Shown here piece after piece: positions 1 to 10,651 of a DNA stretch of 10,651 nucleotides. How positions within the stretch are numbered: the first letter of the stretch is position 1; every line of letters starts with the position of its first letter. Source of the DNA: a virus. Its lineage: Duplodnaviria; Heunggongvirae; Uroviricota; Caudoviricetes. The notes beneath the pieces are model-generated. The model worked only from the letters and a program-made list of their open reading frames with translations. It ran no database searches and was not told the origin of the DNA. Where the stretch lies: the IMG/VR virus record IMGVR_UViG_2698536677_000015. The stretch is one strand, 5' to 3'. The position numbers were made by a program, and so were the translations under genes.

Positions 1-1
1 A

Positions 2-1387
2 CAGGCCACTCTGGATGATAAACAGCAGAGTGCCCTGACAAAAACAGAGCGTGAGCTGGCCCTGTCCAGACTGAAAGGGGAAGAAAAAGAGCGTGCCCGG
101 CTGGGGTATGCGGCGGATGACCTTGGTTTTGTGGGGGATTCGTATCAGGAGGCGAGACAGCGTTATATCAGTAATGCTCTGGAAGCCTGGCGTAATAACG
201 AGGCGAACAAACCTAAATCCCGGGGTGGAAAATCAGAGACGGAAAAAGCGGAAGACAGTTTTTCCCGGCTACTGAAGCAGCAGAAAGAGCAACTGGCACT
301 GGCGGGTCAGAATACAGAGCTGGCGAAGCTGAAGTACCAGACTGCGCAGGGCGAACTGAAAACCCTGACGGAGATGCAGAAGCAGGAACTGCTGCGTAAC
401 GCGGCCCTGATTGACCAGCAAAAAATCCGGGAACAGTTGCGATCCCGGGAAGAGACCCTGAAGAATGATAATGTGGCTGCGCGTGCATCAAATGAAGCCG
501 AACTGCTGGGATACGGGCAGGGAGAACGAGCCAGGGAACGCATGCGGGAGTTGCAGCAGATCCGCGACAGCTTCCGCCAGAAGGATGCGGACCTTCAGTC
601 TCAGTATCAGACCGGGGATATCAGTGAGGATTTTTACAGACAGGCACGGGCACAGAACGCGCAGTATCTGAGCGAACGCCTTAAGGACCAGGCAGCCTTT
701 TATGCCGAATCGGATGCGCAGCGTGCGGACTGGCAGAAAGGCTTGCAGGAGGGGCTCAGTAACTGGTTGGATAATGCGTCCGATTACGCCTCACAGGCAG
801 CACAGCTTGCGACGGAGGGTATCTCAGGGATGGTGAATAACATCACGGAGATGCTGAACGGAAATAAAGTGGAATGGCGCAGCTGGGCCTCATCAGTGCT
901 GCAGGAAATATCAAAAGTTCTTATGAATGCCGCGATTGTCAACGGAATTAAGACGGCGGCAAACGGTATGTCCGGTGCGGGAGGATTTCTCGGCAGCATT
1001 GGTGACTGGCTGGGCGGGGCGGTGGCCAATGCAAAAGGCGGCGTGTATACCTCGGCAAACCTGAGTGCGTACAGCAACAGTATTGTGGATACGCCCACGT
1101 ACTTTGCCTTTGCAAAAGGGGCCGGGCTGATGGGGGAGGCCGGACCTGAAGCCATTATGCCCCTGACGCGGGCGGCGGATGGCTCGCTGGGTGTGCGCGC
1201 GGTGGGTAGTATGTACGGCAGTGCGGGCCTGGTGTATTCCCCGGTCTACCATATCGCCATTCAGAATGACGGGACTAATGGCCAGATAGGGCCGGAGGCG
1301 GCAGGCAGTCTTGTGCAGCTGATTGACCAGCGGGTGCAGGCGGTGATGCTGTCCATGCGACGTGACGGAGGAATGCTGAGTGGCTGA
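2..1387 (+). CDS. H: Tail tape measure protein, C-terminal portion (lambda gpH family); the 5' end lies upstream of the window
   Basis: The frame is open from position 2 with no upstream stop (the ORF track lists only the GTG-initiated part 131..1387). Gln/Glu/Arg-rich coiled-coil-like sequence is followed by a Gly-rich C-terminus (e.g. PLTRAADGSLGVRAVGS), typical of lambdoid tape measure proteins. Position immediately upstream of M-L-K-I matches lambda gene order. Stop TGA at 1385..1387. Confidence 0.85.
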   Translation, partial: QATLDDKQQSALTKTERELALSRLKGEEKERARLGYAADDLGFVGDSYQEARQRYISNALEAWRNNEANKPKSRGGKSETEKAEDSFSRLLKQQKEQLALAGQNTELAKLKYQTAQGELKTLTEMQKQELLRNAALIDQQKIREQLRSREETLKNDNVAARASNEAELLGYGQGERARERMRELQQIRDSFRQKDADLQSQYQTGDISEDFYRQARAQNAQYLSERLKDQAAFYAESDAQRADWQKGLQEGLSNWLDNASDYASQAAQLATEGISGMVNNITEMLNGNKVEWRSWASSVLQEISKVLMNAAIVNGIKTAANGMSGAGGFLGSIGDWLGGAVANAKGGVYTSANLSAYSNSIVDTPTYFAFAKGAGLMGEAGPEAIMPLTRAADGSLGVRAVGSMYGSAGLVYSPVYHIAIQNDGTNGQIGPEAAGSLVQLIDQRVQAVMLSMRRDGGMLSG

Positions 1388-1721
1388 GATAAAAACGCTG
1401 CATCTGGTCCCGCGTGAAGGGATGCAGGTGAGTGAGAAGCCGTCGGTGGTGAGGGTGCGGTTTGGTGACGGTTATGAACAGCGCCGCCCCACAGGGCTGA
1501 ATCCTCAACTGAAGACGTTTCAGGCGGTGTTCCGGGTGACGGATGAGTCAACCCGGCGCTGGCTGGAAGAGTTTTTATCGTGGCATGGTGGTTACCGTGC
1601 CTTTTTGTGGCGACCGCCGAAACATAACCGGACGGTGAGGGTTGTGTGCCGTGAGTGGAGTGTCACGGATAATGCCCGGTACAGTGATTTCAGTTGCACG
1701 ATAGAGCAGGTGGTGAACTGA
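1380..1721 (+). CDS. M: Minor tail protein M (lambda gpM family)
   Basis: 113-aa ORF with the motifs VRFGDGYEQR and a C-terminal EQVVN, recognisable as lambda gpM. GTG start at 1380 overlaps the H stop by 8 nt, with GGAGGA 7 nt upstream. Stop TGA 1719..1721 overlaps the L start (ATGA). Confidence 0.85.
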   Translation: MAEIKTLHLVPREGMQVSEKPSVVRVRFGDGYEQRRPTGLNPQLKTFQAVFRVTDESTRRWLEEFLSWHGGYRAFLWRPPKHNRTVRVVCREWSVTDNARYSDFSCTIEQVVN

Positions 1722-2419
1722 TGCAGGATATTCACGAAGAAAGCCTGAACGAGTCGGTTAAGTCAGAGCAGTCACCGCGTGTGGTACTCTGGGAAATCGA
1801 CCTGACGGTGCAGGGCGGTGAGCGCTATTTTTTCTGCAATGAACTGAATGAAAAAGGGGAGCCGGTCACCTGGCAGGGGCGTGAATATCAGGCGTACCCG
1901 ATTGACGGCAGCGGCTTTGAGATGAACGGGAAGGGCAGCAGTGCCAGACCGTCGCTGACGGTGTCCAATCTGTTTGGCCTTGTCACCGGAATGGCGGAGG
2001 ACCTGCAGAGCCTGGTGGGGGCCACGGTGGTCCGCCGCCGGGTGTATGCCCGTTTTCTGGATGCGGTGAATTTTGTGGCGGGCAATCCGGAAGCGGACCC
2101 GGAGCAGGAGCTGAGCGACCGCTGGGTGGTGGAGCAGATGTCAGAGCTGACGGCCATGACAGCCTCGTTTGTGCTGGCAACACCGACGGAGACGGACGGA
2201 GCGCTGTTTCCCGGTCGCATTATGCTGGCGAATACCTGTATGTGGGATTACCGGGGAGATGAATGCGGGTATAACGGTCCTGCGGTGGCGGATGAGTTCG
2301 ACAACCCCACCACGGATATCCGTAAGGACAGATGCAGCAAGTGCATGCGTGGGTGTGAACTGCGCAGGAATGTCGGCAATTTTGGCGGTTTCCTTTCCAT
2401 TAATAAACTTTCGCAGTAA
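1721..2419 (+). CDS. L: Minor tail protein L (lambda gpL family), with a Cys-rich C-terminal domain
   Basis: ATG at 1721 (MQDIHEESLNE...). Strong similarity to lambda gpL throughout (VVLWEIDL, GERYFFCNE, GEPVTWQGREYQ). C-terminal CxnC...CxxCxxxC cysteine cluster and terminal GNFGGFLSINKLSQ. The track ORF 1694..2419 begins at an upstream in-frame Met; 1721 is preferred because of the ATGA coupling with M and the lambda-like N-terminus. Confidence 0.85.
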   Translation: MQDIHEESLNESVKSEQSPRVVLWEIDLTVQGGERYFFCNELNEKGEPVTWQGREYQAYPIDGSGFEMNGKGSSARPSLTVSNLFGLVTGMAEDLQSLVGATVVRRRVYARFLDAVNFVAGNPEADPEQELSDRWVVEQMSELTAMTASFVLATPTETDGALFPGRIMLANTCMWDYRGDECGYNGPAVADEFDNPTTDIRKDRCSKCMRGCELRRNVGNFGGFLSINKLSQ

Positions 2420-2429
2420 ATCCCGGTTT

Positions 2430-3173
2430 ATGACACAGACTGAATCAGCGATTCTGGCACATGCCCGGCGGTGTGCGCCTGCGGAGTCGTGCGGCTTCGT
2501 GATAAGCACGCCGGAGGGGGAGCGGTATATCCCTTGTGTGAATATTTCCGCAGAGCCGGAGGCGTATTTTCGTATCGCACCGGAAGACTGGCTGCGGGCA
2601 GAGATGCAGGGGGAGATTGTGGCACTGGTCCACAGTCATCCCGGTGGGCTGCCCTGGCTGAGCGAGGCTGACCGGCGGCTGCAGATAAAAAGCGCACTGC
2701 CCTGGTGGCTGGTCTGCCGGGGTGACATTCACAAATTCCGCTGTGTGCCACATCTGACAGGACGGCGCTTTGAGCACGGGGTGACGGACTGTTACACGCT
2801 GTTCCGGGATGCCTACCATCTGGCGGGAATTGATATGCCGGATTTTGAGCGTGAGGATGACTGGTGGCGTAACGGTCAGAACCTTTACCTGGACAATATG
2901 GCGGTCACCGGCTTTTACCGGGTGCCCCTGTCCTCTGCACAGGCGGGCGATATCCTGCTGTGCTGCTTTGGCGCATCGGTGGCCAATCATGCCGCCATAT
3001 ACTGCGGCAACGGTGAGCTGCTTCACCATCTGCCTGAACAACTGAGTAAACGGGAGAGGTATTCCGAAAAATGGCAACGACGAACGCATTCAGCCTGGCG
3101 TCACCGCCACTGGCACGCATCTGCCTTCACGGGGATTTGCAACGATTTGGCCGCCGCCTCAGCCTGTATGTGA
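2430..3173 (+). CDS. K: Tail assembly protein K, copy 1 (N-terminal JAB/MPN-type metalloprotease motif plus C-terminal NlpC/P60-like domain)
   Basis: 247-aa product (MTQTESAILAHARRC...). JAMM-like motif E19-SCGF ... H68-S-H70-x7-S78-x2-D81 (EIVALVHSHPGGLPWLSEAD). C-terminal Cys/His region (GVTDCY ... NHAAIYCG) typical of NlpC/P60. The track ORF 2169..3173 is the same frame extended back into L; ATG 2430 lies 10 nt after the L stop. Confidence 0.85.
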   Translation: MTQTESAILAHARRCAPAESCGFVISTPEGERYIPCVNISAEPEAYFRIAPEDWLRAEMQGEIVALVHSHPGGLPWLSEADRRLQIKSALPWWLVCRGDIHKFRCVPHLTGRRFEHGVTDCYTLFRDAYHLAGIDMPDFEREDDWWRNGQNLYLDNMAVTGFYRVPLSSAQAGDILLCCFGASVANHAAIYCGNGELLHHLPEQLSKRERYSEKWQRRTHSAWRHRHWHASAFTGICNDLAAASACM

Positions 3174-3751
3174 ACACGGCAGCGGAAGCCATTCGCGCCC
3201 TGTCGATGCAGATGCCGGGCTTTCGCCGTCAGATGAACGAAGGCTGGTACCAGATACGTATTCGCGGTGAGGACACGGCACCGGAGGCGGTGTACGCCCG
3301 TCTTCACGAACAGCTGGGTGAGGGGGCGGTCATCCATATTGTGCCGCGACTGGCCGGGGCCGGAAAGGGTGGACTGCAGATTGTGCTGGGGGCGGCAGCC
3401 ATCGTGGGCTCTTTCTTCACTGCCGGGGCATCAATGGCGTTATGGGGTTCAGCCCTGGCAGCCGGTGGTTTTTCTGCCACCACGATGCTGTTTTCACTGG
3501 GGGCCAGCATGATACTGGGTGGTGTGGCACAGATGCTTGCCCCGAAGCCAAAAACACCGGAATACAGGGCAACGGATAACGGCAGACAGAACACGTACTT
3601 TTCCTCGCTGGATAACATGATTGCCCAGGGGAACCCGATGCCGGTGCCTTACGGTGAAATGCTGGTTGGCTCCCGGCGAATCTCCCAGGACATCAGTACC
3701 CGTGATGAAGGCGGTGACGGGAAGATGGTGGTTATCGGGCGGCAGGCATAA
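3071..3751 (+). CDS. I: Tail assembly protein I, copy 1 (lambda gpI family)
   Basis: 226-aa ORF (MATTNAFSLASPPLARICLHGDLQRFGRR...) with a hydrophobic Gly/Ala-rich central segment and DNGRQNTYFSSLDNM. Start is embedded in the 3' end of K in another frame (103-nt overlap), as in lambda. GGAGAGG lies upstream of the ATG. Confidence 0.85.
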   Translation: MATTNAFSLASPPLARICLHGDLQRFGRRLSLYVNTAAEAIRALSMQMPGFRRQMNEGWYQIRIRGEDTAPEAVYARLHEQLGEGAVIHIVPRLAGAGKGGLQIVLGAAAIVGSFFTAGASMALWGSALAAGGFSATTMLFSLGASMILGGVAQMLAPKPKTPEYRATDNGRQNTYFSSLDNMIAQGNPMPVPYGEMLVGSRRISQDISTRDEGGDGKMVVIGRQA

Positions 3752-3773
3752 AAGCGAAAAAATCCCGCAGTGA

Positions 3774-3988
3774 TGTTTCCCGGTCGCATCATGCTGGCGA
3801 ACACCTGTATGTGGGATTACCGGGGAGATGAATGCGGGTATAACGGTCCTGCGGTGGCGGATGAGTTCGATAAACCCACCACCGATATCCGTAAGGACAG
3901 ATGCAGCAAGTGCATGCGCGGGTGTGAGATGCGCGGCATGGTGGCTAATTTTGGCGGTTTCCTTTCCATTAACAAACTTTCGCAGTAA
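3774..3988 (+). pseudogene. Detached 3' fragment of gene L (last ~70 codons, complete Cys-cluster domain) heading repeat unit 2
   Basis: Sequence from about 3774 matches L from about 2203 onward (FPGRIMLANTCMWDYRGDECGYNGPAVADEF...INKLSQ) at roughly 95% identity. It is joined abruptly to the I-downstream sequence at 3773/3774. An in-frame GTG-ATG at 3770..3775 gives a possible 72-aa ORF. Confidence 0.7.
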
Positions 3989-3993
3989 ATCCA

Positions 3994-4737
3994 ATGACAC
4001 AGACAGAATCAGCGATTCTGGCGCATGCCCGGCGGTGTGTGCCTGCGGAGTCGTGCGGCTTCGTGGTGAGAACGCCGGAGGGGGAGCGGTATATCCCTTG
4101 TGTGAATATCTCTGCAGAGCCGGAGGCGTATTTTCGTATTGCACCGGAAGACTGGCTGCGGGCAGAGATGCAGGGGGAGATTGTGGCACTGGTCCACAGT
4201 CATCCCGGTGGTCTGCCCTGGCTGAGCGAGGCCGACCGGCGGCTGCAGATAAAAAGTGCACTGTCCTGGTGGCTGGTCTGCCGGGGGGAAATTCATAAAT
4301 TCCGCTGTGTGCCACATCTGACAGGACGGCGCTTTGAGCACGGGGTGACGGACTGTTACACGCTGTTCCGGGATGCCTGCCATCTGGCGGGAATTGATAT
4401 GCCGGATTTTGAGCGTGAGGATGACTGGTGGCGCAACGGTCAGAACCTTTACCTGGACAATATGGCGGTCACCGGCTTTTACCGGGTGCCCCTGTCCTCT
4501 GCACAGGCGGGCGATATCCTGCTGTGCTGCTTTGGTGCTTCGGTACCGAACCATGCCGCCATTTACTGCGGCAACGGTGAACTGCTTCACCATCTGCCTG
4601 AACAACTGAGTAAACGGGAGAGGTATTCCGAAAAATGGCAACGACGAACGCATTCTGTCTGGCGTCACCGCCACTGGCACGCATCTGCCTTCACGGGGAT
4701 TTGCAACGATTTGGCCGCCGCCTCAGCCTGTACGTGA
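3994..4737 (+). CDS. K: Tail assembly protein K, copy 2 (allele B)
   Basis: 247-aa ORF, about 95% identical to copy 1 with scattered substitutions (CVPAESCGFVVRT, ALSWW, RGEIH, RDACH, SVPNH, ...SACT). The L-stop to K-start spacer is 5 nt here against 10 nt in copy 1. Confidence 0.8.
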   Translation: MTQTESAILAHARRCVPAESCGFVVRTPEGERYIPCVNISAEPEAYFRIAPEDWLRAEMQGEIVALVHSHPGGLPWLSEADRRLQIKSALSWWLVCRGEIHKFRCVPHLTGRRFEHGVTDCYTLFRDACHLAGIDMPDFEREDDWWRNGQNLYLDNMAVTGFYRVPLSSAQAGDILLCCFGASVPNHAAIYCGNGELLHHLPEQLSKRERYSEKWQRRTHSVWRHRHWHASAFTGICNDLAAASACT

Positions 4738-5315
4738 ACACGGCAGCGGAAGCCATCCGTGCCCTGTCGCTGCAGGTGCCGGGATTCCGCCGCCAGATGA
4801 ACGAAGGCTGGTACCAGATACGTATTGCTGGTGAGGACACGGCACCGGAGGCGGTGTATGCCCGCCTTCACGAACAACTGGGTGAGGGGGCGGTCATCCA
4901 TATTGTGCCGCGACTGGCCGGTGCAGGGAAAGGCGGACTGCAGATTGTGCTGGGGGCGGCAGCCATCGTGGGCTCTTTCTTCACGGCCGGAGCATCGATG
5001 GCAGCCTGGGGGGCAGCGCTGAGTGCCGGCGGTTTTTCTGCCACCACGATGCTGTTTTCACTGGGTGCCAGCATGATACTGGGTGGTGTGGCACAGATGC
5101 TGGCCCCGAAGCCAAAAACACCGGAATACAGGGCAACGGATAACGGTAAACAGAACACGTACTTTTCGTCGCTGGATAACATGATTGCCCAGGGGAACCC
5201 GATGCCGGTGCCTTACGGTGAAATGCTGGTTGGCTCCCGGCGAATCTCCCAGGACATCAGCACCCGTGATGAAGGCGGGGGCGGAACGGTCGTGGTTATC
5301 GGGCGACAGGGATAA
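4635..5315 (+). CDS. I: Tail assembly protein I, copy 2 (allele B)
   Basis: 226-aa ORF, near-identical to copy 1 with substitutions across the length (FCLASP, SLQVPGF, IRIAGED, AAWGAALSAGG, ...GGGGTVVVIGRQG). Confidence 0.8.
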   Translation: MATTNAFCLASPPLARICLHGDLQRFGRRLSLYVNTAAEAIRALSLQVPGFRRQMNEGWYQIRIAGEDTAPEAVYARLHEQLGEGAVIHIVPRLAGAGKGGLQIVLGAAAIVGSFFTAGASMAAWGAALSAGGFSATTMLFSLGASMILGGVAQMLAPKPKTPEYRATDNGKQNTYFSSLDNMIAQGNPMPVPYGEMLVGSRRISQDISTRDEGGGGTVVVIGRQG

Positions 5316-5320
5316 AACAT

Positions 5321-5354
5321 AAAAAAATCCCGCAGTGATCGCGGAGCTGCGGGG
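5321..5354 (-). terminator. Candidate intrinsic terminator for leftward transcription (hairpin with a T-tract on the minus strand)
   Basis: Plus strand reads AAAAAAA-TCCCGCAG-(11-nt loop)-CTGCGGGG. On the minus strand this is a GC-rich stem-loop followed by TTTTTTT. No convincing minus-strand gene lies upstream of it in this copy. Confidence 0.4.
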
Positions 5355-5538
5355 ACAGACAAATGAAGATCAATGTTAAGGAGTTGTTTTTGTTACTCGG
5401 GCAAAAAAACACTAACGCAGCGAAATTATAAGCGCCACAGTCAGTGTGTGAAAATGTGAAGATATTCAGAATTTTTATGCCATTACCGGTTTTAACCAAC
5501 AGGATTATCGGTGGGCATGAAAGAAAACCCCGGTATCA

Positions 5539-5673
5539 GTGGCGGATGAGTTCGATAAACCCACCACCGATATCCGTAAGGACAGATGCAGCAAGTGCAT
5601 GCGCGGGTGTGAGATGCGCGGCATGGTGGCTAATTTTGGCGGTTTCCTTTCCATTAACAAACTTTCGCAGTAA
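5539..5673 (+). pseudogene. Shorter detached 3' fragment of gene L (last ~44 codons) heading repeat unit 3
   Basis: From 5539 the sequence matches the L 3' end (VADEFDKPTTDIRKDRCSKCMRGC...INKLSQ). The first two cysteines of the cluster are missing. It is joined to spacer sequence at 5537..5539. Confidence 0.65.
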
Positions 5674-5678
5674 ATCCA

Positions 5679-6422
5679 ATGACACAGACAGAATCAGCGA
5701 TTCTGGCGCATGCCCGGCGGTGTGTGCCTGCGGAGTCGTGCGGCTTCGTGGTGAGAACGCCGGAGGGGGAGCGGTATATCCCTTGTGTGAATATCTCTGC
5801 AGAGCCGGAGGCGTATTTTCGTATTGCACCGGAAGACTGGCTGCGGGCAGAGATGCAGGGGGAGATTGTGGCACTGGTCCACAGTCATCCCGGTGGTCTG
5901 CCCTGGCTGAGCGAGGCCGACCGGCGGCTGCAGATAAAAAGTGCACTGTCCTGGTGGCTGGTCTGCCGGGGGGAAATTCATAAATTCCGCTGTGTGCCAC
6001 ATCTGACAGGACGGCGCTTTGAGCACGGGGTGACGGACTGTTACACGCTGTTCCGGGATGCCTACCATCTGGCGGGAATTGATATGCCGGATTTTGAGCG
6101 TGAGGATGACTGGTGGCGCAACGGTCAGAACCTGTACCTGGACAATATGGAGGCGACTGGTTTTTACAGGATTTCCCTGCCTTCCGCACAGCCTGGCGAT
6201 ATCCTGCTGTGCTGCTTTGGCGCATCGGTGGCCAATCATGCCGCCATATACTGCGGCAACGGTGAGCTGCTTCACCATCTGCCTGAACAACTGAGTAAAC
6301 GGGAGAGGTATTCCGAAAAATGGCAACGACGAACGCATTCAGCCTGGCGTCACCGCCACTGGCACGTATCTGCCTTCACGGGGATTTACAACGATTTGGC
6401 CGCCGCCTCAGCCTGTATGTGA
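5679..6422 (+). CDS. K: Tail assembly protein K, copy 3 (mosaic allele)
   Basis: 247-aa ORF. The 5' part is identical to copy 2, the middle carries copy-1-like residues (RDAYH, SVANH, HSAW), and a divergent patch of about 60 nt (around 6134..6190) encodes DNMEATGFYRISLPSAQPGD, present in neither other copy. Confidence 0.8.
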   Translation: MTQTESAILAHARRCVPAESCGFVVRTPEGERYIPCVNISAEPEAYFRIAPEDWLRAEMQGEIVALVHSHPGGLPWLSEADRRLQIKSALSWWLVCRGEIHKFRCVPHLTGRRFEHGVTDCYTLFRDAYHLAGIDMPDFEREDDWWRNGQNLYLDNMEATGFYRISLPSAQPGDILLCCFGASVANHAAIYCGNGELLHHLPEQLSKRERYSEKWQRRTHSAWRHRHWHVSAFTGIYNDLAAASACM

Positions 6423-7321
6423 ACACGGCAGCGGAAGCCATCCGTGCCCTGTCGATGCAGATGCCGGGATTCCGCCGTCAGATGAACGAAGGCTGGTACC
6501 AGATACGTATTCGCGGTGAGGACACGGCACCGGAGGCGGTGTACGCCCGTCTTCACGAACAGCTGGGTGAGGGAACGGTCATCCACATTGTGCCGCGACT
6601 GGCCGGGGCCGGAAAGGGTGGACTGCAGATTGTGCTGGGGGCGGCAGCCATCGTGGGCTCTTTCTTCACTGCCGGGGCATCAATGGCGTTATGGGGTTCA
6701 GCCCTGGCAGCCGGTGGTTTTTCTGCCACCACGATGCTGTTTTCTCTGGGGGCCAGCATGATTCTGGGTGGTGTGGCTCAGATGCTGGCCCCGAAGGCTA
6801 AAGTACCGGAGTACAAAAGCACGGATAACGGCAGACAGAACACGTATTTTTCGTCACTGGACAACATGATTGCCCAGGGAAAATTCCGCTGTGTGCCACA
6901 TCTGACAGGACGGCGCTTTGAGCACGGGGTGACGGACTGTTACACGCTGTTCCGGGATGCCTGCCATCTGGCGGGAATTGATATGCCGGATTTTGAGCGT
7001 GAGGATGACTGGTGGCGCAACGGTCAGAACCTTTACCTGGACAATATGGCGGTCACCGGCTTTTACCGGGTGCCCCTGTCCTCTGCACAGGCGGGCGATA
7101 TCCTGCTGTGCTGCTTTGGTGCTTCGGTACCGAACCATGCCGCCATTTACTGCGGCAACGGTGAACTGCTTCACCATCTGCCTGAACAACTGAGTAAACG
7201 GGAGAGGTATTCCGAAAAATGGCAACGACGAACGCATTCTGTCTGGCGTCACCGCCACTGGCACGCATCTGCCTTCACGGGGATTTGCAACGATTTGGCC
7301 GCCGCCTCAGCCTGTACGTGA
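6320..7321 (+). CDS. In-frame I-K fusion ORF: I residues 1-187 joined to K residues 102-247 (NlpC/P60-like half only)
   Basis: 333-aa ORF. The N-terminal part is I sequence up to ...SLDNMIAQG (codon 187 ends at 6880). It then continues directly as K from KFRCVPHLTGRRFEHG... in the copy-2 (allele B) version through to the K stop. Junction is at about 6879..6883. Confidence 0.7.
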   Translation: MATTNAFSLASPPLARICLHGDLQRFGRRLSLYVNTAAEAIRALSMQMPGFRRQMNEGWYQIRIRGEDTAPEAVYARLHEQLGEGTVIHIVPRLAGAGKGGLQIVLGAAAIVGSFFTAGASMALWGSALAAGGFSATTMLFSLGASMILGGVAQMLAPKAKVPEYKSTDNGRQNTYFSSLDNMIAQGKFRCVPHLTGRRFEHGVTDCYTLFRDACHLAGIDMPDFEREDDWWRNGQNLYLDNMAVTGFYRVPLSSAQAGDILLCCFGASVPNHAAIYCGNGELLHHLPEQLSKRERYSEKWQRRTHSVWRHRHWHASAFTGICNDLAAASACT

Positions 7322-7899
7322 ACACGGCAGCGGAAGCCATCCGTGCCCTGTCGCTGCAGGTGCCGGGATTCCGCCGCCAGATGAACGAAGGCTGGTACCA
7401 GATACGTATTGCTGGTGAGGACACGGCACCGGAGGCGGTGTATGCCCGCCTTCACGAACAACTGGGTGAGGGGGCGGTCATCCATATTGTGCCGCGACTG
7501 GCCGGTGCAGGGAAAGGCGGACTGCAGATTGTGCTGGGGGCGGCAGCCATCGTGGGCTCTTTCTTCACGGCCGGAGCATCGATGGCAGCCTGGGGGGCAG
7601 CGCTGAGTGCCGGCGGTTTTTCTGCCACCACGATGCTGTTTTCACTGGGTGCCAGCATGATACTGGGTGGTGTGGCACAGATGCTGGCCCCGAAGCCAAA
7701 AACACCGGAATACAGGGCAACGGATAACGGTAAACAGAACACGTACTTTTCGTCGCTGGATAACATGATTGCCCAGGGGAACCCGATGCCGGTGCCTTAC
7801 GGTGAAATGCTGGTTGGCTCCCGGCGAATCTCCCAGGACATCAGCACCCGTGATGAAGGCGGGGGCGGAACGGTCGTGGTTATCGGGCGACAGGGATAA
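7219..7899 (+). CDS. I: Tail assembly protein I, copy 4 (identical in protein sequence to copy 2)
   Basis: 226-aa ORF with the same translation as 4635..5315. It starts inside the K-derived part of the fusion ORF in the usual K/I overlap arrangement. Confidence 0.8.
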   Translation: MATTNAFCLASPPLARICLHGDLQRFGRRLSLYVNTAAEAIRALSLQVPGFRRQMNEGWYQIRIAGEDTAPEAVYARLHEQLGEGAVIHIVPRLAGAGKGGLQIVLGAAAIVGSFFTAGASMAAWGAALSAGGFSATTMLFSLGASMILGGVAQMLAPKPKTPEYRATDNGKQNTYFSSLDNMIAQGNPMPVPYGEMLVGSRRISQDISTRDEGGGGTVVVIGRQG

Positions 7900-7904
7900 A
7901 ACAT

Positions 7905-7938
7905 AAAAAAATCCCGCAGTGATCGCGGAGCTGCGGGG
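7905..7938 (-). terminator. Second copy of the candidate minus-strand hairpin/T-tract terminator
   Basis: Same sequence as 5321..5354, at an offset of 2584 bp. Confidence 0.4.
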
Positions 7939-8103
7939 ACAGACAAATGAAGATCAATGTTAAGGAGTTGTTTTTGTTACTCGGGCAAAAAAACACTAAC
8001 GCAGCGAAATTATAAGCGCCACAGTCAGTGTGTGAAAATGTGAAGATATTCAGAATTTTTATGCCATTACCGGTTTTAACCAACAGGATTATCGGTGGGC
8101 ATG

Positions 8104-8144
8104 AAAGAAAACCCCGGTATCTGCTGATACCGGGGGTTCTCTTT
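8104..8144. terminator. Perfect 10-bp inverted repeat hairpin with T/A-rich flanks; candidate bidirectional terminator
   Basis: CCCCGGTATC-TGCT-GATACCGGGG at 8112..8135, followed by GTTCTCTTT on the plus strand and preceded by AAAGAAAA (a T-rich run on the minus strand). Confidence 0.45.
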
Positions 8145-8241
8145 AGCATGGCAGAAATGTGTTTCATGCTTTTCGGGCGAAGGATATCCGACTTCTGTAC
8201 GGAATGGCAAGTGGCGGTTAATTTATTCAGGGGAAGGCTGT

Positions 8242-8263
8242 ATGGGAAAAGGTGGCGGTAAGA
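8242..8263 (+). other. 22-bp remnant of a J-gene start (ATGGGAAAAGGTGGCGGTAAGA, encoding MGKGGGK) with its own upstream purine-rich RBS-like sequence
   Basis: Closely matches the true J start at 10317 (ATGGGCAAAGGTGGCGGC..., MGKGGGR). It is preceded by AGGGGAAGG and joined at 8263/8264 to internal K sequence. The ATG is out of frame with the K fragment and would give only about 49 codons. Confidence 0.5.
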
Positions 8264-8887
8264 GCAGAGCCGGAGGCGTATTTTCGTATCGCACCGGAAG
8301 ACTGGCTGCGGGCAGAGATGCAGGGGGAGATTGTGGCACTGGTCCACAGTCATCCCGGTGGGCTGCCCTGGCTGAGCGAGGCTGACCGGCGGCTGCAGAT
8401 AAAAAGCGCACTGCCCTGGTGGCTGGTCTGCCGGGGTGACATTCACAAATTCCGCTGTGTGCCACATCTGACAGGACGGCGCTTTGAGCACGGGGTGACG
8501 GACTGTTACACGCTGTTCCGGGATGCCTACCATCTGGCGGGAATTGATATGCCGGATTTTGAGCGTGAGGATGACTGGTGGCGTAACGGTCAGAACCTTT
8601 ACCTGGACAATATGGCGGTCACCGGCTTTTACCGGGTGCCCCTGTCCTCTGCACAGGCGGGCGATATCCTGCTGTGCTGCTTTGGCGCATCGGTGGCCAA
8701 TCATGCCGCCATATACTGCGGCAACGGTGAGCTGCTTCACCATCTGCCTGAACAACTGAGTAAACGGGAGAGGTATTCCGAAAAATGGCAACGACGAACG
8801 CATTCAGCCTGGCGTCACCGCCACTGGCACGCATCTGCCTTCACGGGGATTTGCAACGATTTGGCCGCCGCCTCAGCCTGTATGTGA
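8264..8887 (+). pseudogene. 5'-truncated K gene (codons 1-40 missing), copy-1 allele
   Basis: From 8264 the sequence aligns with K copy 1 from nt 121 onward, and the translation from AEPEAYFRIAPEDWL... is identical to copy 1. The region containing the conserved ESCGF glutamate is absent. An in-frame GTG at 8252 could initiate a 211-aa truncated product (track ORF 8252..8887). Confidence 0.7.
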
Positions 8888-9465
8888 ACACGGCAGCGGA
8901 AGCCATTCGCGCCCTGTCGATGCAGATGCCGGGCTTTCGCCGTCAGATGAACGAAGGCTGGTACCAGATACGTATTCGCGGTGAGGACACGGCACCGGAG
9001 GCGGTGTACGCCCGTCTTCACGAACAGCTGGGTGAGGGGGCGGTCATCCATATTGTGCCGCGACTGGCCGGGGCCGGAAAGGGTGGACTGCAGATTGTGC
9101 TGGGGGCGGCAGCCATCGTGGGCTCTTTCTTCACTGCCGGGGCATCAATGGCGTTATGGGGTTCAGCCCTGGCAGCCGGTGGTTTTTCTGCCACCACGAT
9201 GCTGTTTTCTCTGGGGGCCAGCATGATTCTGGGTGGTGTGGCTCAGATGCTGGCCCCGAAGGCTAAAGTACCGGAGTACAAAAGCACGGATAACGGCAGA
9301 CAGAACACGTATTTTTCGTCACTGGACAACATGATTGCCCAGGGTAACCCGATGCCGGTGCCTTACGGGGAAATGCTGGTTGGCTCCCGCCGTATATCCC
9401 AGGACATCAGTACCCGTGATGAAGGCGGGGGCGGAAAGGTCGTGGTTATCGGGCGGCAGGCATAA
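8785..9465 (+). CDS. I: Tail assembly protein I, copy 5 (allele C)
   Basis: 226-aa ORF. Mostly like copy 1, but with APKAKVPEYKST in place of APKPKTPEYRAT and GGGGKVVVIGRQA at the C-terminus. The same KAKVPEYKST variant is found in the I part of the fusion ORF. Confidence 0.8.
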   Translation: MATTNAFSLASPPLARICLHGDLQRFGRRLSLYVNTAAEAIRALSMQMPGFRRQMNEGWYQIRIRGEDTAPEAVYARLHEQLGEGAVIHIVPRLAGAGKGGLQIVLGAAAIVGSFFTAGASMALWGSALAAGGFSATTMLFSLGASMILGGVAQMLAPKAKVPEYKSTDNGRQNTYFSSLDNMIAQGNPMPVPYGEMLVGSRRISQDISTRDEGGGGKVVVIGRQA

Positions 9466-9470
9466 AAGCG

Positions 9471-9507
9471 AAAAAATCCCGCAGTGCTCACGGACAGGAA
9501 CTGCGGG
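9471..9507 (-). terminator. Candidate minus-strand hairpin/T-tract terminator downstream of I copy 5
   Basis: AAAAAA-CCCGCAG-(16-nt loop)-CTGCGGG on the plus strand. The stem arms are the same as in the 5321 and 7905 copies but the loop differs, and the loop is long, so this is a weak call. Confidence 0.3.
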
Positions 9508-9620
9508 AGCGTTACGAAGATTGAGTGTAAGGAATTATTCTTATGTCACGACAAAAACATTAACTCAGAGAGGGAGGATGTGCCGTTCTTTTCAGGGAGA
9601 AAGGATTTATCGTCCTGAGG

Positions 9621-9649
9621 AATAAAGGTAAGGGGCCCGCCCCTTACCT
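9621..9649 (-). terminator. Candidate intrinsic terminator of sodC
   Basis: Perfect 10-bp stem AGGTAAGGGG / CCCCTTACCT with a 4-nt loop at 9626..9649, six nt beyond the sodC stop, followed on the minus strand by TTTATT. No T-tract follows on the plus strand, so it is probably unidirectional. Confidence 0.5.
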
Positions 9650-9655
9650 GACTGA

Positions 9656-10183
9656 TTATTGAATGATGCCGCAGGCCATTCTCGCACCACCACCGCCCAG
9701 GGGCTCCGGATGGTCATGATGGTTATCACCGCCAGCATGAAGCATGAGAGAACGCCCTTTAATCTCTTTTAATGAGTTCAGTCTCGGGGCCAGGACCGGG
9801 TAGTTCGCTTTTCCGTCATGCGTCACGAACAGCGCAGGGAGGTCGCCCAGGTGTCCATCCGGAGACCAGGGGCCAAGATGTTTGCCGGTGTTTTTCGGGT
9901 CAAAGTGACCGCCAGCCGATAATGCTGCGACCGGTTTTCCGTCTTTCAGTGCCGGGGCGCAATTTCCTTTTTCGTGCACATGAAAACCATGAATGCCTTC
10001 AGACAGAGAGTGAAGGGCTGGTGTGAACAGCAGACCGTAGGGGGTCTCCTGAATGGTTATTTTTCCAATGCTGACTTCTTTTCCGTCAGCACTGACAAGG
10101 TTCATTGGGACTTCCTGTTCTGCTGCGTATCCGCATGATGCTGCTGTCAGCATGGCAATGGCAGCAATGATTTTACATTTCAT
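9656..10183 (-). CDS. sodC: Periplasmic Cu/Zn superoxide dismutase (SodC family), a prophage cargo (moron) gene
   Basis: 175-aa product with an N-terminal signal peptide ([20 protein letters not shown]). Hallmark Cu/Zn-SOD motifs are present: [70 protein letters not shown] sits 5-6 nt upstream of the ATG at 10183..10181. The track ORF 9656..10642 is the same frame extended upstream antisense to J. Confidence 0.85.
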
Positions 10184-10316
10184 AAAACCCTCATTAATTC
10201 CGTTAACAGACTGAGCTTGCTGGTTACAGGGTAACAAACAGCGTTCTGATGATATCGCGCAATAGCTGTGCAATATCCTATCACTGCGATTAATAATACC
10301 AATTGAGAGGAACATT
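10184..10316. promoter_or_regulatory. Divergent intergenic region between sodC (leftward) and J (rightward); presumed site of the sodC promoter and the J ribosome-binding site
   Basis: 133 bp of AT-rich noncoding sequence between two divergently oriented start codons. GAGAGGA lies 7 nt upstream of the J ATG. No -35/-10 pair could be assigned with confidence by eye. Confidence 0.3.
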
Positions 10317-10651
10317 ATGGGCAAAGGTGGCGGCAGGGCGCACACGCCTCGAGAGGCGAAGGATAATCTCAAATCCACGCAGATGATGAGTGTGATTGAT
10401 GCGATTGGTGAGGGACCGATAGAAGGCCCGGTGAAGGGGCTGCAGAGTATCCTGGTGAACAAAACCCCGCTGACGGACACGGACGGCAATCCTGTGATAC
10501 ACGGTGTGACCGCGGTCTGGCGCGCCGGGGAGCAGGAGCAGACACCACCGGAAGGCTTTGAGTCCTCCGGAGCTGAAACCGGACTGGGCGTGGAAGTGAC
10601 GAAGGCAAAGCCGGTAACGCGCACCATTACATCCGCGAACATTGACCGCCT
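10317..10651 (+). CDS. J: Tail tip / host-specificity protein J, N-terminal 111 codons (continues beyond the window)
   Basis: Open frame from ATG 10317 to the window end ([39 protein letters not shown]...[17 protein letters not shown]...[12 protein letters not shown]). This is a very close match to the lambda gpJ N-terminus. It is absent from the ORF track because no stop is reached. Confidence 0.85.

Follow-up and report, generated by a model that had tools for sequence, protein, structure and literature searches.

Whether sodC, a gene for a Cu/Zn superoxide dismutase, entered the interval between the tail genes I and J of a lambdoid prophage as a discrete moron is the question raised by positions 9466..10316 of the window (the whole stretch of viral DNA analyzed here, 10,651 nucleotides). 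The initial annotation had placed a sodC with a signal peptide there, antisense between the last I gene and J, and had taken a second, sodC-free I–J spacer in the same window as support for a discrete insertion. Our reading, with a probability of approximately 0.9, is that this sodC is the published prophage-borne SodC-F1/F2 gene of E. coli O157:H7, an accessory (moron) cassette in a variable I–J slot, antisense to the late operon.

The sodC gene between I and J

The window covers a lambdoid tail-tip region, which begins within the 3′ part of H, continues through M, L, K, and I, and closes with the 5′ end of J. The features around sodC are as follows.

8785..9465, plus strand: last copy of the tail assembly gene I as the longest open reading frame (Pfam Lambda_tail_I, PF06805, E = 3.3e-16)
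9626..9649, minus strand: sodC terminator, a 10-bp G+C-rich hairpin followed by UUUAUU
9656..10183, minus strand: sodC, 175 amino acids (Pfam PF00080), product identical to WP_000649829.1
10184..10316, minus strand: 5′ region of sodC, AT-rich (39.8% GC), the divergent sodC–J intergenic region of 133 nt
10317..10651, plus strand: 5′ end of J, the tail tip/host-specificity gene, which runs off the window

The stop codon of I is at 9465 and the ATG of J is at 10317, so the I–J interval is exactly 9466..10316. The RefSeq form of the last I is 582 nt (8884..9465) and is annotated as "tail assembly protein" in identical genomes. The J fragment is 100% identical to the annotated gpJ of AMSHJX01 and 382634_2f. 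In lambda, the end of I (15444) and the start of J (15505) leave a gap of 60 nt, in agreement with the short I–J gap described for lambda in the initial annotation.

The position, strand and identity of sodC given there are exact. In the Pfam search, the product matches Sod_Cu (PF00080) with 111.9 bits and an E value of 3.9e-32 (curated cut-off, 28.9 bits), and the match covers positions 3–133 of the 133 profile positions. In the alignment with the solved structures 1z9n, 2wwn, and 1eqw, the residues in HGFHVH, GGHFDP, HLGDLP, LHAGGDN, GNC, and MACG are identical, and the residues that bind copper and zinc, together with the cysteines of the disulfide, are retained as in solved bacterial SodC structures. 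The N-terminal 21 residues consist of a charged n-region and a hydrophobic core, and the N-terminus is predicted from these features to be a signal peptide. The solved mature chains start aligning at residues 22–25 of the window SodC. The protein carries the lipobox AASC with Cys17 and a signal peptidase I site at 20/21, as in the published LipoP analysis of SodC-F (PMC2569942).

The comparison with the O157:H7 enzymes should be noted, since it identifies the gene. Over all 175 amino acids, the window SodC is 100% identical to the protein that sodC encodes in O157:H7 strain OK1; the same identity is seen in AMSHJX01 and many other strains, in the same I–sodC–J context. SodC-F1 and SodC-F2, encoded on the O157:H7 prophages CP-933R and CP-933V (D'Orazio et al. 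2008, PMC2569942), differ from each other only by Leu versus Pro, at nucleotide 335; the window protein has Leu112 and is thus the SodC-F1 form, with no difference from it. The lipobox, the signal peptidase I site, and the I–sodC–J position in the O157:H7 genome are also the same. The gene and its immediate flanks do not differ from SodC-F, and only the surrounding duplicated K–I fragments are abnormal. Both the prophage sodC gene and its layout are therefore already known. Since the protein matches a characterized enzyme and the layout is found in approximately 10% of complete E. coli genomes, the window copy adds nothing new in itself. All E. coli sodC copies are more than 95% identical, so their conservation says little about selection.

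The base composition of sodC is foreign to the tail genes. Its GC content is 52.8% and its GC3 is 50.6%, in contrast to 57–60% and 64–69%, respectively, in H, M, L, K, I, and J. This is the comparison that had been suggested as a check, and it comes out in favor of an accessory gene.

Alternative occupants of the I–J slot

The initial annotation had also described a sodC-free spacer (spacer B) that reaches a J start. We compared it with the sodC-bearing version (spacer A), and the following features are needed for the comparison.

5321..5403: second, truncated copy of the pasB locus
7900..8241: spacer B, the sodC-free version of the I–J slot, 342 nt
7905..7987, minus strand: pasB, 83 nt by homology with E2348/69, terminator stem at 7913..7929
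8009..8036, minus strand: sigma-70-type promoter of pasB, TTCACA-16-TATAAT (11/12)
8242..8263, plus strand: stub of J, the ATG and six codons, fused to mid-K
9472..9562, minus strand: PasB-like body with an intrinsic terminator in spacer A (stem at 9478..9494, then U6)
9563..10316, minus strand: A-specific sodC cassette, 754 nt, with a GC content of 50.4% against approximately 60% in the flanking genes

Spacer B runs into ATGGGAAAAGGTGGCGGTAAG at 8242, which is the J start in natural spacer-B prophages. In the prophage of strain Z1323HEC0108, the spacer-B alignment carries on into J, and the description of spacer B as reaching J in the absence of sodC therefore holds. In the window, J of the sodC-free copy extends for only 21–22 nt (7 codons) before the sequence jumps into mid-K at 8263/8264.

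According to the terminator scan, both spacers open 5–6 nt past the I stop codon with an intrinsic terminator on the minus strand, composed of a hairpin and a U6–U7 run. In spacer B, this terminator belongs to a small gene that we assign to pasB. The sequence AATCCCGCAGTGATCGCGGAGCT, published as the Northern probe against PasB, is present without mismatch at 7910..7932 and 5326..5348. In EPEC E2348/69, PasB has been validated as an Hfq-dependent sRNA (Pearl Mizrahi et al. 2021, PMC8550237), and its locus (NC_011601, 1466261..1466343, minus strand, 83 nt) lies directly after gene I of prophage PP6. The spacer-B gene is near-identical to this locus in the alignment and shares its position (5 nt past the I stop codon), strand, promoter, and terminator; the promoter is conserved in both E2348/69 and PhiR5_1. 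The probe match, the E2348/69 locus, the 11/12 promoter, and the terminator together indicate, at the sequence level, that the minus-strand gene in spacer B is pasB. This sRNA gene is absent from the initial annotation. A search with Rfam gave no family at the gathering score anywhere in the window. The permissive matches to STnc400 (E = 0.19), Hrs1, and STnc310 are far under the threshold and were rejected as look-alikes of terminator hairpins. AgvB/AsxR and PasA/C/D were likewise rejected as candidates for the small RNA next to I, since they sit at the PR′/Q-lysis moron site and not between I and J.

Spacer A keeps only a diverged PasB-type body and its terminator, and the sodC cassette replaces the promoter. 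The body aligns with PasB of E2348/69 and more closely with the body in PhiR5_1: the terminator and the 3′ part are conserved with respect to PasB, whereas the 5′ part, which holds the seed, differs from it and corresponds to the PhiR5_1 type. PhiR5_1 has the same body variant with an intact promoter. The homology of spacer A to the others ends at approximately 9562, a few bases from their transcription start/−10 box, and in the alignments nothing in spacer B, E2348/69, or PhiR5_1 corresponds to 9563..10316.

The part common to spacers A and B is thus confined to the first ~97 nt after I, comprising the PasB-type body and terminator, and the region of the J start codon. Between these parts, 754 A-specific nucleotides (9563..10316) stand in place of 238 B-specific nucleotides (8004..8241) that include the pasB promoter. 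In a third version, the 240-nt spacer of the E2348/69 type, approximately 135 nt are found at the position of the sodC cassette. As judged from these alignments, removal of sodC from spacer A would not yield spacer B. The sodC cassette would take the place of everything from the PasB-type body next to I to the J start codon. The sequences indicate a cassette exchange, moron-like in behavior, in which sodC arose, or now exists, as a replacement. The I–J slot may accordingly be viewed as a small exchange site with a left module (the PasB alleles) and alternative right modules, sodC being one of the latter.

All three versions occur in natural genomes. The full I–sodC–J interval is present in 546 of the 5,426 complete E. 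coli genomes, spacer B (counted at coverage of at least 80%) in 1,444, always between I and J, and the 240-nt spacer in 126. Among 151 phage records matching the flanks, only two carry sodC, both of them Stx2a phages, and most of the others have an I–J spacer of about 240 nt. Thus, comparison of both intervals with related prophages, as had been proposed, shows that sodC is variably present. The sodC gene is thus not a universal part of the interval and very probably not an ancestral one, in contrast to the outcome that the initial annotation had named as speaking against its reading.

The polymorphic presence, the slots occupied in the Salmonella prophages Fels-1 and Gifsy-2, and the GC3 difference together show that sodC is an accessory (moron) cassette. 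SodCIII of Fels-1 (STM0924) is encoded in the same I–J slot and in the same antisense orientation as the window sodC. SodCI of Gifsy-2 (STM1044), a virulence-associated dimeric periplasmic Cu/Zn superoxide dismutase, is also prophage-borne, antisense, and located in the tail cluster (PMC2569942), but its slot runs from M/lom-like genes to L, and the protein is 58.8% identical to the window SodC. Among the 80 best loci for SodC relatives in species-representative genomes, the identity to the window SodC reaches 69%, and no lambdoid I, J, or K lies near any of them. The loci, from Serratia, Pragia, Leminorella, Pseudomonas, and other genera, are chromosomal sodC genes and do not point to a donor.

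The term moron needs some qualification. Patchy presence between conserved neighbors, a terminator of its own, and a deviant composition are all seen for sodC, and with its own ribosome-binding site they sustain the earlier proposal of a separate accessory unit. A clean addition to an intact junction is not seen, since the A, B, and 240-nt spacers differ throughout their right part, and the insertion proposed earlier has to be replaced by an exchange. Like the established lambdoid morons (lom and bor of lambda; Juhala et al. 2000; Cumby et al. 2012, PMC3594210), sodC is an additional gene among conserved late genes, carries a terminator of its own, deviates in composition, and is expressed from the prophage. 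It departs from them in running antisense to the late operon and in taking the place of an sRNA promoter and spacer, themselves accessory, instead of enlarging a minimal junction.

Origin of the two versions in the window

The presence of both I–J versions in one window is explained by the structure of the window itself. The following features are abnormal.

3775..8263, plus strand: extra, non-canonical L′–K–I–spacer material in three head-to-tail fragments with blunt junctions
3774/3775, 5538/5539, 6880/6881, and 8263/8264: junctions J1, J2, J3, and J4, respectively

Matching complete E. coli genomes all hold the window content only once, in approximately 4.93 kb corresponding to 1..3751 plus 9466..10651. 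The other ~5.7 kb of the window are head-to-tail repeats of parts of the L–K–I–spacer region. Self-comparison divides the window into five co-linear fragments (1..3774, 3775..5538, 5539..6880, 6881..8263, and 8264..10651). The four joins between them are out of register, connecting a spacer with the tail of L (twice), mid-I with mid-K, and J codon 7 with mid-K, and the microhomology at J1–J4 is 0–2 nt.

The fragments have different closest relatives. The fragment 5539..6880 is 100% identical to the prophage of strain 382634_2f, the sequence of which resumes at 9345..10651, again with 100% identity. The fragments 3775..5538 and 6881..8263 show 99.9% identity to the Z1323HEC0108 prophage and are mutually 100% identical in their overlap. 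The stretch 8264..9051 is identical to the first copy (from 2550), and the sequence from 9210 onward is identical to 382634_2f; the switch between them is in register and lies inside a 158-nt stretch (9052..9209) that is identical in both alleles. By these identities, the window mixes at least three prophage alleles.

This patchwork is probably an artefact of assembly or of a chimeric molecule. A de Bruijn-graph mis-join is unlikely for the four out-of-register junctions, where only 0–2 nt are shared, and is possible for the in-register switch in 9052..9209. Since the window is structurally abnormal, the local context upstream of 8264 should not be taken as natural, and inferences from the internal duplications call for caution. 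The sodC-free junction in the window belongs to a different prophage allele that was probably joined by the patchwork and not by a natural event. The co-occurrence of the two versions, to which the initial annotation had appealed, therefore provides no independent natural evidence for insertion.

Two other histories have to be weighed against the reading of an accessory cassette in an artificially joined window. The two I–J versions and the L′–K–I repeats could reflect a real rearrangement in one genome, for example by serial template switching among resident lambdoid prophages. The five fragments are co-linear, have the same orientation, and derive from one homologous region of ~3 kb, which argues against random ligation; one switch is in register (9052..9209), and up to 12 such prophage regions are present per E. 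coli genome. However, such a rearrangement would require four different out-of-register junctions with hardly any microhomology within 4.5 kb, and would ruin the stoichiometry of K and I and part I from J. J3 and J4 are found in 0 of the 5,426 complete E. coli genomes, none of which has the 10.6-kb layout, all the matching ones showing the single-copy layout. Searches of viral, species-representative, and metagenome sequences (viral_contigs, genome_contigs, and metagenome_contigs, respectively) likewise do not find the exact J4, and the protein of the in-frame I–K fusion (open reading frame 6320..7321) is not on record. Moreover, 382634_2f and Z1323HEC0108, in whose prophages the fragments find their matches, are unrelated strains. 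A real rearrangement is therefore very unlikely.

It is equally improbable, to a high degree, that sodC is the ancestral occupant of the I–J interval, from which spacer B and the 240-nt spacer were derived by deletion or replacement. The antisense sodCIII in the I–J slot of Fels-1 would fit such a history, as would the PasB-like body beside sodC, which is nearer to that of PhiR5_1 than to the B allele and thus indicates that the alleles have been reshuffled. On the other hand, SodCIII and the window SodC are only 60.5% identical, and Fels-1 aligns with the E. coli interval only in the coding sequence and J. The non-coding flanks of the two genes do not align, and sodCIII lies 53 nt from I with no PasB-like body between them. 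In composition, sodC is unlike the tail genes. Nor can the sodC-free spacers be read as spacer A cut short, since they have 135–238 nt of their own including a working-looking promoter. They are also approximately three times as common as the sodC-bearing version, and lambda itself has only its 60-nt gap.

Expression of sodC and the PasB-like body downstream

The GAGGG ribosome-binding site of sodC is located at 10188..10192, with the ATG 4 nt further, as expected from the RBS attributed to the gene at the outset. The ribosome-binding site of J is on the plus strand at the far end of the sodC–J intergenic region (10184..10316). The terminator hairpin at 9626..9649 is of similar stability on the two strands (−17.9 and −18.5 kcal/mol in the folding), and its U-rich tail is present on the minus strand only; the terminator scan also lists only the minus strand. 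The terminator thus looks unidirectional, as had been stated, though its U-tract is weak and interrupted (UUUAUU).

In the consensus scan, no sigma-70 site with at least 9/12 matches is found upstream of sodC. The 299 bp upstream of the O157 sodC are reported to have promoter activity in a lacZ fusion, and the result on RpoS for this fusion is given as "data not shown" (PMC2569942). We infer that the promoter lies within the AT-rich 133-nt sodC–J intergenic region or just inside J.

The behavior of the protein is known from the same study of O157:H7 (PMC2569942). The prophage SodC is dimeric, with activity and stability above those of the chromosomal SodC, and SodC-F is partly membrane-associated via lipidation. 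The enzyme can be detected in log-phase as well as anaerobic cultures, and its expression is RpoS-independent. SodC-F is expressed in uninduced lysogens, independently of prophage induction, and resistance to hydrogen peroxide is lower in sodC deletion strains. Thus, the expression in uninduced lysogens that was to be checked is already published for the same gene, and the proposed link to oxidative stress is published for this very protein.

From these results and the identity of the genes, the following course may be proposed. In the lysogen, sodC would be transcribed leftward from the AT-rich sodC–J region without induction or RpoS, and transcription would stop at the hairpin and U-tract, which would act only on their own strand. 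Late transcription from I to J would presumably be left unblocked, as the terminators are on the minus strand only. The SodC precursor would be exported by its signal peptide and either processed by signal peptidase I at 20/21 or given a lipid anchor at Cys17, as published. The mature dimeric Cu/Zn enzyme would then clear periplasmic superoxide, and the host would be protected from exogenous oxidative stress, as also published. Prophage-borne sodC genes contribute to resistance to oxidative stress and, in Salmonella, also to virulence.

The position of the PasB-like body (9472..9562) relative to sodC should be noted. It shares the strand of sodC and follows it downstream, and the scan finds no promoter for the body itself. 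The sodC cassette may have recombined within a few bases of the transcription start of a PasB-family gene, so that an independent, Hfq-dependent sRNA gene became a mere extension of the sodC transcript with no promoter. If this extension is released by read-through and processing, a single promoter would serve both an antioxidant enzyme of the periplasm and a trans-acting sRNA regulated along with it, though we regard this reading as a whole as distinctly unlikely. Such co-delivery of sodC and PasB is absent from the papers on PasB. The preprint on the Pas sRNAs describes PasB as embedded in a structural-gene operon, and "sodC" and "superoxide" do not appear in its main text (Zhu, Shabalina and Storz 2026).

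A related proposal is that the body yields a 3′-derived Hfq-binding sRNA from the sodC transcript by read-through or processing, so that enzyme and regulator are produced together. This is unlikely, if somewhat less so than the reading just described. The shared strand, the intact hairpin and U6 terminator, the stable fold (−21.4 kcal/mol, z = −2.0), and the weak U-tract of the sodC terminator are all consistent with it. In addition, the same type of body has its own promoter in PhiR5_1, and PasB itself is validated and Hfq-dependent. Against it, the promoter scan of the body is empty, and the copies are too alike for a test of selection. Retention of the body may have a simple explanation in a recombination breakpoint upstream of it.

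Fragments and alleles in the window

The region covering L, K, I and the spacer is present as five co-linear fragments arranged head to tail (window 3775..8263 plus flanks), and these fragments derive from at least three prophage alleles. Their junctions, all of which are blunt and out of register, are as follows.

3774/3775, junction J1
5538/5539, junction J2
6880/6881, junction J3
8263/8264, junction J4

The layout of the window was found in none of the complete E. coli genomes searched (0 genomes), and J3 and J4 are likewise absent from them. Junction J3 yields an in-frame ORF of 333 aa (6320..7321), in which the N-terminal three quarters of I are fused to the C-terminal NlpC/P60 half of K. 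The public assemblies collection has no record of a gene for this fusion product. The patchwork probably arose as an artefact, either of assembly or of a chimeric molecule.

An in-register allele switch is found in the last I gene, which is identical to the first-copy allele through 9051 and to the allele of strain 382634_2f from 9210 on. The switch point falls in 9052..9209, a stretch of 158 nt common to both alleles without any difference.

pasB in the I-J spacers

Spacer B, the sodC-free interval between I and J (7900..8241), carries a gene for PasB, a validated Hfq-dependent sRNA, immediately 3' of gene I. The published PasB Northern probe matches this copy exactly. The features of this spacer and the related loci are listed below.

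7905..8036, minus strand, pasB with promoter and terminator
5321..5452, second copy of the pasB locus, truncated
8112..8135, hairpin scoring as a terminator on both strands, in the B-specific part of the spacer
8210..8181, minus strand, weak promoter-like site, in the B-specific part of the spacer
E2348/69 locus, 1757..1996, 240-nt spacer
PhiR5_1 locus, 1667..1906, 240-nt spacer

An Rfam search of 8037..8241 gave STnc310 alone, at a chance-level E value of 4.8. The 240-nt spacer type consists of either PasB allele joined to a short right-hand module, in which a putative hairpin followed by a T-run is seen by eye on the plus strand, just 5' of J.

Positions of sodC

A PasB-type sequence also lies beside the sodC cassette.

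9472..9562, minus strand (that of sodC), PasB-type body downstream of sodC

This body is diverged and lacks a promoter, with its terminator intact, and the edge of the cassette lies no more than a few bases from the expected transcription start of a PasB-type sRNA.

The sodC genes of two Salmonella prophages are located as follows (locus coordinates).

Gifsy-2, 3501..4034, antisense, sodCI, in the tail-tip slot from M/lom-like genes to L
Fels-1, 3495..4019, antisense, sodCIII, in the tail-tip slot from I to J

As the two genes sit in two different tail-tip slots, each in antisense orientation, their positions suggest that sodCI and sodCIII were captured separately.
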